Assembly (NCBI GenBank): GCA_038534095.1
Contig: JBCAXK010000005.1
Location: 1-62,839, forward strand
DNA from: Chlamydiota bacterium
GTDB taxonomy: Bacteria > Chlamydiota > Chlamydiia > Chlamydiales > SM23-39
Length of the DNA: 62,839 nucleotides
Reading direction: 5' to 3'
A program made the translations under genes and the position numbers. Below are positions 30,324-34,750 of this stretch, piece after piece. Within the stretch, counting starts at the first letter, position 1. Each line of letters begins with the position of its first letter. A model generated the notes under the pieces. It worked only from the letters and a program-made list of their open reading frames with translations. It searched no databases and was not told where the DNA came from.

Positions 30324-31091
30324 TCACAGCTCTATCATCCCATCTGAAAAAGACTGTTTTGCTTGTTGTATGGAGTTGACTAGGTGCTTACGAATATTCC
30401 ACAAAGCGCTTTTCGCAAGGGCATCGATACAGGCAGCTAGGCCCCCTACAAAGAGAACATTCCTGCTTGGCAAGTAGATTGTTTCGTTGTTCGTGTTGAT
30501 AAGTAGCATAGAGTGACTGTAAAGCCATAAAGCGCCGCCTGCAGAAAGAAGAGAAGTTGTTATTGCAAGAATGGCAAACTTGCGGTGTAGACGTTGGACA
30601 TGAAGGTCATTTTTGCACCCCTGGAAGATTGTTTTACAATCATCAGGAAGGAGATTTTGCATATCACTCATTCTAGGGTGGTAGTGGTCGAGGCTGGGCC
30701 ACTGGGGATAAAAAGCCATCGGGCTTTGCCTGGGGATTGTTCTATCGACATGCTCAGTATTGAATACAACAGCTCGAAAAAGAACTCGTCTATAGATATG
30801 AAAGTCCATAACGGTGGATACTAAAGTAGAACTATAACAGAGGATCGCTGCGATGAACATGATCCCTTCTTGATCTTGAATCGTTGATCTTTCAGAGGCG
30901 CGTATCGCGCTTAACTGACTGCTTAACCGCCCTCCTTGGTCACTAAAATAATAGGTACCTAGAAGAAAAACCGTATGCCAAGCGTACATCATGATGTTTT
31001 CACAGAAAAATTTTTCGTGTAATTCTCTGTTCAAATTTCGATTGCTTGCGTAAGGCAAGGAGTTACTTGCGCATCTACATAATAAAGTCAT
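30324..31091 (-). CDS. hypothetical polytopic membrane protein
   Basis: 255-aa product with about four hydrophobic segments (WHTVFLLGTYYF, MFIAAILCYSSTLVSTV, FAILAITTSLLSAGGALWLY, VLFVGGLAACIDALA). No recognisable domain. Confidence 0.6.
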   Translation of the reverse strand: MTLLCRCASNSLPYASNRNLNRELHEKFFCENIMMYAWHTVFLLGTYYFSDQGGRLSSQLSAIRASERSTIQDQEGIMFIAAILCYSSTLVSTVMDFHIYRRVLFRAVVFNTEHVDRTIPRQSPMAFYPQWPSLDHYHPRMSDMQNLLPDDCKTIFQGCKNDLHVQRLHRKFAILAITTSLLSAGGALWLYSHSMLLINTNNETIYLPSRNVLFVGGLAACIDALAKSALWNIRKHLVNSIQQAKQSFSDGMIEL

Positions 31092-31323
31092 CAGCGAGTC
31101 TTTTGATTAAGGATTCTCTAATAAGCTCTACGTATTTCCGGGTGAAGTAGAGAGCATCATCTAGATCACGAACACTTTTCTTAAAAGCAGACAATCTACA
31201 GATATTTATCAGGCTGTTTTCCTAAGTAGGCGTATATCTACAAAGAAAACTGTAGGCTAAAACACTTTTTATAAGAAGTATTTTTAGAAGCCATCCTTCA
31301 AACGGGCACTTAGAAAGATTCCA

Positions 31324-32997
31324 TTATCCGGCTGCTTCTCTTGCTGCAGGGAACTGCTTTTTCCAACGAGCAATGGCTTCTTTGAAAGGAGCGGCTCCCG
31401 TTTTGACCTGGCCATTTTCGTCAAACGTACTAAATCCATGCCATTTATTGTGAGGATCGTTCCACTCCCAAGTACGCATTGACCAAAGAATAGCCCCTTC
31501 GAAATTTTCTTCTCCAATCTCTTTTGCTGCCTCTTGCGCAGCGTAGAGTACCCGTCTTAAAAAACGAGCTCTTTGTTTTTCATCTTTAGGGCAGATGCCA
31601 AGTTCACTTAAGTGCAATTTTATCCCAAGGGCTTTGAACATAGAGACAATGGCAGGGAAAACAGCTGCTGGATCTTCCCAGAAGGGCATGCTGGTCATCA
31701 CAGGAACTTCATTTTTCCATCCAAAAAGGGCTCGAACAAGACGGGTGATTCTATAAACAATACCGTTATAAGGTGGAATGGACCCTGTGACTCCAATAAA
31801 TGGTCGAACATAGACTTGAACGCCCATAAAGTCTGCTTGGAATTTTTTTGTCTTCCGTTTGAGGTTGACCAAACCAGGAGCTTTAAAAGAGGTCTCAACA
31901 GTATCCTCATCACTATCTTTTGATGCTGCGAAATACCTCATCGATACGTTATTGACAAACTCGGTTAAATACGAGGTGACTGGGTAGGTGAATGGGTTCG
32001 CAGATTTGAACACTAAATACTGGTAAGTTAGTCCTATTTTTGCTTCTGGGAATTGCTGTTTTGCAAGGCGGTAAATCTCGTTATGCGCCTCGTACATGTT
32101 CATTAAGAAATGGAAAGCCTTTTCAAAATCGAAATAAATACCTGGAGAAAAGGCGCCTCGGATGTAACGGGAAAATGCCTCAACATTGGGTTCATTGATC
32201 GTATAGATGCGCTCTACAAGCATCTCCCCCATATAGTCTTGGCAAAGAGCAGGGATCGCATGGTTGACCGCAAAATTGACGAATTTTTGCGCATTTTCTT
32301 TTGTAGCAAAGCTCCCTTGGTTATGCCACTTTTGCTCTTCTGCAAAATGGTGTAGCGTAACTACTGGAGCGATTCCTGCGTCTCGTAGGTCTTTACAAAG
32401 AGCAATGATGACAGCGAATTCTTCTTCGTTGCATCCCCCATCTGGAAGCATGGTTTTAGGAAGAGAAATAGAGAAACGGAACGTATTGACCCCGAGGTCT
32501 TGGAGCTGTCTGATCAGCTCTTGACGCCCTTCAGGAGTGGTATAGCTACGATAGAGCTCGGGCAGGGGGCGTTCTAGATCGGAATTTTCTAGGGGAGGTT
32601 CCCAAGAATCCCATTGGGCCTCACGAAAGTTCTTTGGATCTGATTGATAGTTACAAGTGCCTGTACCCCATTTGAAATCAGAATTCGCGTGTCCCAATTG
32701 CAAGCGTTGCATAATTTCATGGTCGACATCGATTTCTGACCATTTTCTAGGATCTTCAACAACAACCGAAAAATCTTCTTTAGCGGAAGGAGACTTTGTG
32801 AAAATTTTTGTGAGCCTGACGAGGTTTTGAATACATTGATGAACAATGGTTGTGATAAGAGCGATAGGAATTTCTATGAAGGCGACCGTAATTTTGGAGA
32901 ATCGGGAAAAAGTCGATTCCCCCTTGATAGGTGATAACCTATCTTCAATATCTTCATACAGAAAATCTTCAAATTCACCAATACGACCAATAGACAT
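31324..32997 (-). CDS. glycoside hydrolase family 1-like protein with N-terminal membrane-anchor extension
   Basis: GH1 blocks in the correct order and spacing: FKWGTGTCNYQ, FRFSISL, VVTLHHF, YTINEPN (acid/base Glu), HLSELGI (nucleophile position), ILWSMRTWEW. They are preceded by about 100 aa containing the hydrophobic ITVAFIEIPIALITTIV. Confidence 0.7.
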   Translation of the reverse strand: MSIGRIGEFEDFLYEDIEDRLSPIKGESTFSRFSKITVAFIEIPIALITTIVHQCIQNLVRLTKIFTKSPSAKEDFSVVVEDPRKWSEIDVDHEIMQRLQLGHANSDFKWGTGTCNYQSDPKNFREAQWDSWEPPLENSDLERPLPELYRSYTTPEGRQELIRQLQDLGVNTFRFSISLPKTMLPDGGCNEEEFAVIIALCKDLRDAGIAPVVTLHHFAEEQKWHNQGSFATKENAQKFVNFAVNHAIPALCQDYMGEMLVERIYTINEPNVEAFSRYIRGAFSPGIYFDFEKAFHFLMNMYEAHNEIYRLAKQQFPEAKIGLTYQYLVFKSANPFTYPVTSYLTEFVNNVSMRYFAASKDSDEDTVETSFKAPGLVNLKRKTKKFQADFMGVQVYVRPFIGVTGSIPPYNGIVYRITRLVRALFGWKNEVPVMTSMPFWEDPAAVFPAIVSMFKALGIKLHLSELGICPKDEKQRARFLRRVLYAAQEAAKEIGEENFEGAILWSMRTWEWNDPHNKWHGFSTFDENGQVKTGAAPFKEAIARWKKQFPAAREAAG

Positions 32998-33036
32998 CTG
33001 TCACCAAAATTTATCATCAAAGCAAGGCATACCATT

Positions 33037-33291: not shown

Positions 33292-33495
33292 AATTGCGCT
33301 ATCATAGGGGAAAAAGCTAGGGCATCAGATTTTTTACGTGCGCTGATGAGCAAAAGGGGGAGATTAGAATCAAGAAGAGCTAGGAAAATGCATGGAAATG
33401 AGATGCGCGCAAAAGGCCCTTGCGCTTTTCAAAACAAAAGATTTCTATAGTCAGATAACGGAGGGCTGTACCTTCAAGTCTTATTCTAGCGCACG

Positions 33496-34638
33496 TTATT
33501 CACCTTTTAGCCTTACCTTTTCAATCAAACTCTTAAGAGAGAGGAGCCATTCCATTGGAAAATGCTTACGAACATTTTGCTCGATAGCGCGGCTTAGCAC
33601 CTCATGAATCGAGGTATTTTGGTCGATCGTGGAGAGAACACCATTTCTATCTAGGAGCATCCCTTTTGGGAGAGCAGGCCATTCGAGATGGCCATATTTT
33701 TTGGAAAAATTTTCAAACAACTTTATGCTGTTTGGATATGGAACTGCGTCAGCTAAGCAGCTGGCTACGTAATGTATCAGGTTCCATCGCATGTTTGCGG
33801 ATTTGCCAGGACAAGGAAGAGAGCCATAACTTTCCAATACAGCATGCAATACGGAGCTTGTTTGCGTAAAAACTGCTTGCTCAAGAGTGAAATGGATCAA
33901 GTTGTAACCAGGAACGTTTCTTTCCCAAGGTTTTTTTCCGTAGATTTTCAAGATCTCTTTCAAAATGAAAACGCGCTCAGAGCGAATCAGCTCTTCAATA
34001 CCTGCTTGGAGGAGACTCATGTCTTCTTGGAAGTATCCTGAGAAAGGCTCGTCTTCGTAAGATTTGAACAAATGTTCGATGGTAGGCCACGAACCCTTTG
34101 CGCTTGCTTGCAAAAGCGCGTAGTCTACGAGGGTTATAGATCCCTCTCCGGGTAATAAAGCGAGGGAAGATGTTTTAAGCCTGTAGGGCAAAGTATCGTC
34201 ATCAAACAAATGTTTAGGGAAAGAGCGCCACCCATGATCTTTTAATAGTCTTTCTAGTCTTTCTGGGCTATTTTCTTGAATGGATTTGTCAATAGCGTTT
34301 TTTACCAAAATCGCTGCTCTCTCTTCTTTTTGAATGGATCGTTTCGTGACTTCCTTAGGATGAATAAGATAAGAGAAAAAATCGACTATACAGTCGATTG
34401 GAAAAGCAGCGCATGATCCTAGAATGGGGATAAACAGAAGAACGTTCCGAAGAGGAGTGATAAATCCCCATCTCTTTGGCTCTAAGTCTTTTGGGAAGTT
34501 TGTATTCGAATCGGACCCTTCAAATAGGCACGAAGAGACGGCTGAACGAATTCTATGTAGCAGCAATCCTTCGATAGGATAATTAGGCTGGAGTAGATAA
34601 CTACATAATCTGCTGGAAGTAATGGTATTATAAATCAT
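33496..34638 (-). CDS. hypothetical membrane-anchored protein with internal helical repeats
   Basis: The 380-aa product has the hydrophobic segment VLLFIPILGSCAAFPIDCIVDFF near residue 70. A recurring motif is seen: ITLVDYALLQASAKG...LFKSY, YNLIHFTLEQAV...VLESYG, WNLIHYVASCLA...FSKKYG. Confidence 0.6.
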   Translation of the reverse strand: MIYNTITSSRLCSYLLQPNYPIEGLLLHRIRSAVSSCLFEGSDSNTNFPKDLEPKRWGFITPLRNVLLFIPILGSCAAFPIDCIVDFFSYLIHPKEVTKRSIQKEERAAILVKNAIDKSIQENSPERLERLLKDHGWRSFPKHLFDDDTLPYRLKTSSLALLPGEGSITLVDYALLQASAKGSWPTIEHLFKSYEDEPFSGYFQEDMSLLQAGIEELIRSERVFILKEILKIYGKKPWERNVPGYNLIHFTLEQAVFTQTSSVLHAVLESYGSLPCPGKSANMRWNLIHYVASCLADAVPYPNSIKLFENFSKKYGHLEWPALPKGMLLDRNGVLSTIDQNTSIHEVLSRAIEQNVRKHFPMEWLLSLKSLIEKVRLKGE

Positions 34639-34750
34639 TTTATCGATAATTAAATTAATTTGTTTTTATTTTAAAATTTTAATTAATTAAAATCAAAAGT
34701 TTTTTATAAAAATAAAATATTTTTAATAAAAGAAAATAAGTAATTTTAGT
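34639..34750. promoter_or_regulatory. extremely AT-rich divergent upstream region with TTAATTAA-type palindromes
   Basis: About 110 nt of almost pure A/T (…AATTAAATTAATTTGTTTTTATTTTAAAATTTTAATTAATTAAAAT…), immediately upstream of the 33496-34638 gene and about 250 nt upstream of the opposite-strand Nudix-like gene. Confidence 0.45.

Follow-up and report, generated by a model that had tools for sequence, protein, structure and literature searches.

The stretch between trpS and a NUDIX hydrolase gene on the chlamydial contig JBCAXK010000005.1 is probably a patchwork and not a single system. It would comprise a membrane-tethered, functional enzyme of glycoside hydrolase family 1 (GH1), two lineage-specific genes, and one non-coding open reading frame (ORF). 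The four ORFs are read from the minus strand of the window, which is the whole 62,839-nucleotide stretch of DNA that was analysed. They are named here ORF A (34638-33496; 380 amino acids, ATG start), ORF B (33291-33037; 84 codons, TTG start), gene C, the GH1 gene (32997-31324; 557 amino acids, ATG start), and gene D (31091-30324; 255 amino acids, ATG start). The first-pass annotation had listed these four minus-strand ORFs, had seen no housekeeping gene among them, and had proposed, by inference, that they form one functional unit. The ORFs are present as listed and none is a housekeeping gene. The idea of a module is not supported, because conserved linkage is missing, A and D are orphans, and B is probably spurious.

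Gene C is a member of GH1 and has the (beta/alpha)8 barrel of the family. It matches Pfam PF00232 (1.2e-24, 87 bits against a gathering cut-off of 22.6), and its catalytic domain covers residues 105-535 (31393-32685, minus strand) according to TIGR03356, the PDB profile, and the fold search. The NCBIfam model TIGR03356 (BGL) aligns to residues 106-528 with 92 bits, which is far under its equivalog cut-off of 478.5 bits; gene C is therefore not filed as an orthodox BGL. The AlphaFold2 (AF2) model made with the family alignment A1 has a mean predicted local distance difference test score (pLDDT) of 84.2 and a predicted TM-score (pTM) of 0.87. A Foldseek search with this model gives probability 1.0 and target-normalised TM-scores of 0.72-0.77 to many GH1 structures, with 1vff at the top.

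Both catalytic glutamates and all canonical GH1 catalytic and sugar-binding residues are kept in gene C, as judged from aligned positions. The acid/base motif N268-E269-P270 (32188-32196, minus strand) is invariant in the family, stands in the context T266-I-N268-E269-P270, and aligns to the NEP of solved GH1s. The nucleophile motif S464-E465-L466-G467 (31597-31608, minus strand) is a degenerate form of T-E-N-G in the context L-S-E-L-G, and its Asn is variable in other clade members too. E465 itself is kept in every family member and lines up with the E in the ITENG of 6z1h. The codons of both motifs were verified. Q118, H217, N268-E269, Y396, E465, W505, and E511 do not vary among the 23 family members of alignment A1 and are kept in gene C, and W512, next to E511, is present without being on the family-invariant list. 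The Gln, His, Tyr, Trp, and Glu-Trp positions of gene C are presumably the GH1 glycone (-1 subsite) residues. A Glu before the Trp (E-W motif) is the state of GH1s that act on non-phosphorylated sugars. Since all canonical catalytic and -1-subsite residues are kept, gene C should work as a retaining beta-glycosidase, and from its sequence and established GH1 knowledge its substrates would be non-phosphorylated sugars. The enzyme would be functional and fast-evolving, and gene C is the longest branch within its family. The glycoside hydrolase fold with intact catalytic residues that had been proposed earlier agrees with the PF00232 match, the GH1 fold matches, and the two retained glutamates.

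The barrel is preceded by an N-terminal extension of residues 1-104 (32686-32997, minus strand; alignments A1 and A2), which is unique to the chlamydial GH1 clade and matches no known domain. Comparison of the extension with Pfam (each member) and with the PDB (as a profile) gives only noise, with E>0.01. In 28 of the 30 closest relatives the N-terminus and the glycone-binding Gln are separated by 82-155 residues (typically 105-120); of the other two, one has a shorter leader (66) and one is an N-terminally truncated entry. The corresponding distance in conventional GH1s found by this search is 15-25 residues. Within the extension every sequence has E18 and W86, and at least 90% of sequences have P23, P44, and P72 (A1, A2). 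The AF2 model shows a helix at residues 3-21, a long helix at 29-64, and then a conserved P..DF..V..D.R.W linker. The long helix includes a hydrophobic segment at residues 33-57 (FSKITVAFIEIPIALITTIVHQCIQ; 32827-32901, minus strand), which is a putative membrane tether. Its highest Kyte-Doolittle mean over 19 residues (KD19) is 1.84, and segments were called hydrophobic at a KD19 of at least 1.75. The equivalent segment has a KD19 of at least 1.7 in 20 of 23 aligned members (family span 1.7-2.4), and it usually has a central Pro, often followed by Gly (LLPxG-like). A module common to A, B, D, and the GH1 extension was rejected, as hhalign gives a probability of at most 1% for each. Some non-chlamydial GH1s (P0032-P0036 and P0043) have a hydrophobic N-terminal leader of ~35 residues, and P0032 is in addition a fusion with thioredoxin-like domains. 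Exported or anchored GH1s are therefore not confined to the chlamydial clade.

The ~20-25-residue hydrophobic helix of the conserved extension most likely holds the GH1 at a membrane. The candidates for this membrane are the bacterial inner membrane or, after secretion, the inclusion membrane. Bacterial GH1 enzymes are typically cytoplasmic, and gene C could accordingly be a soluble beta-glucosidase or beta-galactosidase for sugar catabolism (for example of host cellobiose or other beta-glucosides), with N-terminal helices that are structural or oligomerising. The extension is conserved including its acidic residues, its pLDDT of 72-85 in the model of pTM 0.87 would fit packing on the barrel, and no positive-inside bias is found in the helix flanks of family members. 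This alternative is nevertheless unlikely, as the KD19 values of 1.7-2.4 are in the transmembrane range and are kept in about 20 of 23 divergent members despite sequence variation. A soluble catabolic role is also disfavoured by the lack of a conserved sugar transporter or kinase among the GH1 neighbours, and by the best-matching characterised enzyme, BGPh of Pyrococcus horikoshii (1VFF), which is described as membrane-associated.

BGPh is the closest solved enzyme to the gene C family by profile and by Foldseek. The family profile finds 1vff as the top PDB match (1.2e-67, 231.8 bits), ~50 bits over typical bacterial beta-glucosidases. Like gene C, BGPh has a compact GH1 barrel of ~420-430 residues and the same catalytic motifs. 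It has no N-terminal extension, as its chain residue 7 aligns to family position 104, and it is an archaeal protein of a hyperthermophile with ~19% identity to gene C. PMC4687101, citing Matsui 2000 and Akiba 2004, reports that BGPh is membrane-associated and has a marked preference for long-alkyl glucosides. It also mentions BGPh relatives that hydrolyse steryl glucosides, and describes a hydrophobic mound on the surface of BGPh, encircled by basic residues, where the active site opens. BGPh presumably binds membranes via the hydrophobic patch near its active site, whereas gene C would do so by its putative N-terminal helix.

Conventional GH1s (TIGR03356 BGL; T. maritima BglA 1OD0, LacG 1PBG) share with gene C the fold, the NEP motif, the nucleophile Glu, and the glycone-binding Q, H, Y, W, and E-W. 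In contrast, they are soluble proteins of the cytoplasm without the ~100-residue N-terminal extension, and gene C has SELG for TENG and several family-atypical substitutions. Human GBA3 (KLrP, PDB 2E9L), the cytosolic beta-glucosidase or neutral glycosylceramidase, is likewise a GH1 and is among both the sequence and the fold matches of gene C. It hydrolyses glycolipids, showing that GH1s can act on ceramide-linked sugars. Unlike gene C, it is soluble and lacks a hydrophobic extension at the N-terminus. Other GH1s match gene C more closely, and no specific relationship to gene C is shown. Because the nearest characterised relative, BGPh, prefers long-alkyl glucosides, the likeliest substrates of gene C, tentatively and on weak analogy, would be beta-glycosides with lipid-like aglycones (glycolipids, steryl or ceramide glycosides). 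The tethered GH1 would then probably cleave glycosides with hydrophobic aglycones. Chlamydiae depend on host lipids and carbohydrates. This dependence, together with a relative that prefers lipid-like aglycones, makes the GH1 a testable candidate for host glycolipid processing.

Relatives of gene C are found almost exclusively in chlamydiae. The protein search gives ~30 full-length relatives of 480-570 amino acids with 30-38% identity. Those with a named source come from Chlamydiae metagenome-assembled genomes (MAGs) or from "Verrucomicrobia" MAGs, and the close relatives are all from Chlamydiota MAGs. The genome scan for GH1 loci, which was pattern-seeded, gives 28 chlamydial loci (Parachlamydiales, Simkaniaceae, Rhabdochlamydiaceae, and unclassified MAGs), corresponding to about 28 species-level genomes, and two distant gammaproteobacterial loci. 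Five GH1 loci are labelled Verrucomicrobia, and these labels are unconfirmed. No Chlamydiaceae protein occurs among the gene C relatives in either the protein search or the genome scan. By sequence, gene C is a divergent member of an uncharacterised chlamydial beta-glycosidase subfamily that is almost confined to environmental Chlamydiota. The searched literature has no description of a chlamydial GH1 or beta-glucosidase effector or of a subfamily of the gene C type. The locus L008 (CAZZMO010000014.1) has tandem GH1 paralogues of this subfamily at 10001-13300, with 530 and 537 amino acids, ~4 kb from a uvrA that is 51% identical to the uvrA of the window. In L016 (QIGB01000017.1, 2169-3709) the GH1 orthologue is split into ORFs of 445 and 124 amino acids, which is a frameshift (pseudogene) or an assembly error.

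Of the four ORFs, gene C alone has relatives in other species. A tblastn search with A, B, D, trpS, and the NUDIX gene, made across the 30 GH1 loci and up to 10 kb of their flanks, found none of these. Relatives of A, B, and D are missing from all 28 chlamydial GH1 loci. When 484 neighbour ORFs were clustered, the most frequent family occurred in 5 of 30 loci. The recurrent neighbour families represent local synteny inside sub-lineages and have nothing in common with A, B, and D. In five loci a protein of ~438 amino acids is encoded on the opposite strand immediately upstream of the GH1, and in four others a multi-pass membrane protein of ~480 amino acids is encoded near it; both are of unrelated families. 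The hydrophobic layouts vary among the neighbours of GH1 loci, and none of the neighbour ORFs matches the ankyrin-like repeat model of gene A described below.

These neighbourhoods bear on the earlier proposal that the four ORFs are one co-transcribed module, displayed on the surface or the vacuole membrane and acting on host or envelope glycoconjugates. Conservation of gene co-occurrence and order in related genomes had been set beforehand as the refuting test, and no conserved linkage was found, by sequence or by architecture, in the 28 chlamydial GH1 loci. The ORFs do lie on the same strand downstream of a single A/T-rich region with one promoter-like match, the gaps between them have no terminator-like hairpin, three products have hydrophobic segments, and the stretch shares a low synonymous divergence unlike trpS. 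However, orthologues of A and D are not found elsewhere, the frame of B is interrupted in the sister strain, and purifying selection on A and D is not detectable. The gaps between the real genes, 498 bp from A to C and 232 bp from C to D, are also long for an operon. Motif scans of these two intergenic gaps found no promoter-like and no terminator-like sites, which decides nothing on co-transcription; in the scans, promoter-like matches are fewer and terminator-like matches more numerous than in shuffled controls. A single module is thus very unlikely. Hydrophobic segments had been claimed for all four products, and they are present in A (58-92), the GH1 (33-57), and D and absent from B. The architecture said to be shared is not, since A, the GH1, and D differ in their hydrophobic layout.

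A sister-strain contig, L031 (Logan SRR27352957), is 97.9% identical to the window. The contig L032, found via the cluster of D, is 100% identical and added nothing. Compared with L031, gene C has 10 synonymous and 12 non-synonymous changes, and the ratio of non-synonymous to synonymous divergence (ω) is 0.33, with a one-sided p=0.011 for purifying selection. Gene A has 4 synonymous and 13 non-synonymous changes and ω=0.89, which is not different from neutral, and its sister copy stops 17 codons early. The reading frame of gene D is open in both strains, with ω=0.54, which is not significant. Purifying selection is detected in the GH1 gene only, and A and D look close to neutral. The 3' part of trpS (29703-30054) has a synonymous divergence (dS) of 0.14, with 10 changes at 77 sites against 19 at 710 for A, the GH1, and D together (30324-34365). 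The synonymous divergence of trpS is thus ~5x that of the three genes (Fisher p=2e-4, window against L031), and a recombination breakpoint could lie between trpS and gene D.

Some of these values would also fit a stretch in decay, in which A, D, and possibly the GH1 of the window are remnants on the way to pseudogenes. The ω of A and its early stop in the sister strain, the non-significant ω and near-zero codon score of D, the already broken B, and the long GH1 branch with 22 of 98 conserved positions changed all point in this direction. Decay is still an unlikely explanation, as both strains keep the frames of A and D open for 1143 and 768 bp, the GH1 is under significant purifying selection with its catalytic residues all kept, and host-interaction proteins also typically evolve fast.

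The reading of the stretch as a patchwork around a tethered, active GH1 has several points against it. At 22 of 98 family-conserved columns gene C differs from the consensus, which is as many as in the most distant clade members, and its substitutions include IEWS to ISLP, HHFSEP to HHFAEE, and TENG to SELG. It also has a 20-residue insertion of low confidence, and it is possible that its activity is altered or lost. The hydrophobic helix holds an acidic residue in several members (FIEIP in gene C) and lacks the flanking charge bias mentioned above, and its role could instead be packing on the barrel or oligomerisation. Lipid-like substrates are suggested by one characterised relative with ~19% identity. 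For selection, one pair of strains was compared, in which each gene has 7-22 changed codons. The synteny test covers distant relatives only, with GH1 identities of at most 38%, as the collections contain no closer genome.

Gene A is by sequence a lineage-specific orphan with a hydrophobic N-terminal segment and degenerate ankyrin-like repeats. The hydrophobic segment (residues 58-92; 34363-34467, minus strand) has 35 amino acids, is interrupted by a Pro and two Asp, and has a KD19 maximum of 2.10. The repeat region (residues ~103-321; 33676-34332, minus strand) has ~5 copies of a ~37-residue unit. A word-indexed search of 5.8 billion proteins matches gene A only to itself or to the same or sister strain. 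An exhaustive HMMER scan of 1.84 billion representatives gives four remote relatives (P0082-P0085) with E-values of 3e-13 to 6e-4, each matched in several stretches. All four are Ank_2-positive (7e-25 to 3e-14), P0083 matches NOMPC and ankyrin in the PDB, and BLASTP of gene A against P0083 gives 2e-12. A hidden Markov model (HMM) of the ~37-38-residue units of these relatives, with the consensus pwPg..gyTmvHYAI..A...G....L..LL..YG, finds five domains in A at residues 113-290, and the clearest repeat is at residues 237-272 (3.5e-7). Gene A itself has no match at E<=1 to the Pfam Ank models, a direct comparison with the PDB gives only noise, and the single-sequence AF2 model is unusable (pLDDT 42). 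The earlier description of A as a helical-repeat protein with a hydrophobic segment is borne out, and the repeats can now be described as ankyrin-like.

Intracellular bacteria use eukaryote-like repeat proteins as host-interaction factors. Gene A, which lies in an obligate intracellular lineage, resembles the Ank effectors of Legionella and Coxiella in having a tandem ankyrin-related helical repeat. A differs from Ank proteins in its period of ~37-38 residues instead of 33, in the degeneration of most of its repeats, and in its near-neutral evolution. Gene A would thus be a candidate host-interaction protein that appears to evolve near-neutrally under weak constraint. The relative P0084 is encoded on an 88-kb contig (L033; ENA ERZ28548088) among genes for a Mip-like FKBP, several WD40 proteins, and patatin-like proteins. 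This suggests that L033 belongs to another host-associated bacterium with the same unusual ~37-residue ankyrin-like repeat.

Gene D is, from its sequence, a lineage-specific small membrane protein with three hydrophobic segments at residues 75-97, 171-192, and 211-231, in agreement with its earlier description as a multi-segment membrane protein. Among 5.8 billion proteins no relatives of gene D are found outside its own cluster of at least 90% identity. Its frame is the best of six by codon score, with a weak value of 0.017 bits/codon. The NCBI record gives it 236 amino acids, which fits a TTG start at codon 20, and the Logan gene calls give 255.

Inclusion membrane (Inc) proteins are defined by a bilobal hydrophobic domain of 40-60 residues, with two helices of 15-32 residues and a loop of less than 30 (Dehoux et al., PMC3048545). 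The segments 171-192 and 211-231 of gene D, with an 18-residue loop and ~60 residues in total, loosely fit this definition, while the third segment at 75-97 is beyond the bilobal pair. Gene D is thus possibly Inc-like. On hydropathy and AF2 grounds, neither the GH1, with its single helix at 33-57, nor A, with its interrupted 35-residue segment, has such a bilobal domain. Like the ORFs described here, Inc proteins are chlamydial, lineage-specific, and poorly conserved, and have hydrophobic segments toward the N-terminus.

Another conceivable reading is type III secretion of the GH1, and perhaps of A and D, into the inclusion membrane, with the glycosidase domain facing the host cytosol, where it would trim host glycolipids. 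In its favour are the Chlamydiota lineage, the position of hydrophobic segments close to the N-termini, the eukaryote-like ankyrin repeats of A, the loosely Inc-like pair of D (PMC3048545), and the fact that GH1s can be glycosylceramidases, with human KLrP 2e9l among the matches. The idea is improbable, as the GH1 has a single helix and A only 35 residues where a bilobal domain of 40-60 residues is expected. Moreover, the first 25 residues of the GH1 are conserved and highly acidic (7 D/E), which would be unlike the poorly conserved type III signals, and the searched literature has no chlamydial GH1 effector. A related and equally doubtful proposal is that the N-terminal module of ~100 residues is a new membrane-targeting domain, which places the GH1 where host and pathogen meet, on the inclusion membrane or the bacterial surface, and lets it strip sugar head-groups from host glycolipids. 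If this were true, many environmental chlamydiae would gain an unrecognised route to host lipids such as glucosylceramide and steryl glucosides, and in this genome the GH1 would adjoin lineage-specific ankyrin-like and Inc-like host-interaction proteins. Under the preferred patchwork reading, the four-gene system does not stand as a new module. The GH1 subfamily is worth recording for its intact active site and its conserved hydrophobic extension without a known domain.

ORF B is unlikely to be a gene. In the sister-strain contig L031 its frame is cut by a stop at codon 44, and its one synonymous and six non-synonymous changes correspond to a divergence of 3.1%, which is the intergenic level. 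Its codon score of -0.055 is the poorest of the four ORFs, it is not called as a gene in L031 or L032, and it has no family matches in Pfam or NCBIfam. The first-pass annotation described it as a small transmembrane protein; the ORF is present, whereas its hydropathy maximum is only 1.38 and its coding status is doubtful.

The stretch is flanked on one side by trpS (28999-30054, plus strand), which is convergent with gene D. On the other side, the NUDIX gene (34971-35513, plus strand) is divergent from gene A and is followed by an ORF for a 126-amino-acid membrane protein (35552-35932) and by uvrA (35937-41573), which encodes a double-length UvrA. The flanking genes trpS and uvrA given earlier are thus correct for the trpS side, whereas on the uvrA side the NUDIX gene and the 126-amino-acid ORF intervene. 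The nearly pure A/T region reported upstream of the cluster is real. This A/T tract (34639-34770) has 12% guanine plus cytosine (GC), lies directly upstream of gene A in the divergent intergenic region between A and the NUDIX gene, and contains one sigma-70-like match (34696-34668, minus strand), which is a consensus match only. The region 34639-34970 as a whole has 23% GC.

A signature of a mobile element or island was rejected, as the stretch is without flanking repeats, tRNA, Rfam element, or compositional shift. The search for direct or inverted repeats flanking the stretch found nothing meaningful, no tRNA or Rfam element was found near it, and its GC equals that of its flanks. Paralogues of A, B, C, or D are absent from the window.

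The assignment of the window to Chlamydiota, which had been proposed before, is upheld because of the chlamydial-type PknD model, the adjacency of valS and pknD, and the chlamydial relatives of the GH1. The PknD model NF009651 is matched over its full length with 785.7 bits, just under the cut-off of 839 bits, by a gene that adjoins valS. The gene at 44500-45768 has its best match to the lipid A acyltransferase model PRK05906, which is presumably of chlamydial type; this match and the double-length UvrA also point to a chlamydial genome. The gene at 44500-45768 adjoins a glycosyltransferase gene (45755-46873), whose start is overlapped by an ORF of 422 amino acids (46839-48107, minus strand) without an NCBIfam match; this ORF may be an uncharacterised envelope gene. 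Two NUDIX hydrolase genes are present less than 10 kb apart, at 25616-26176 (minus strand) and 34971-35513 (plus strand), and the first of these is NudE-like and overlaps the start of pknD.

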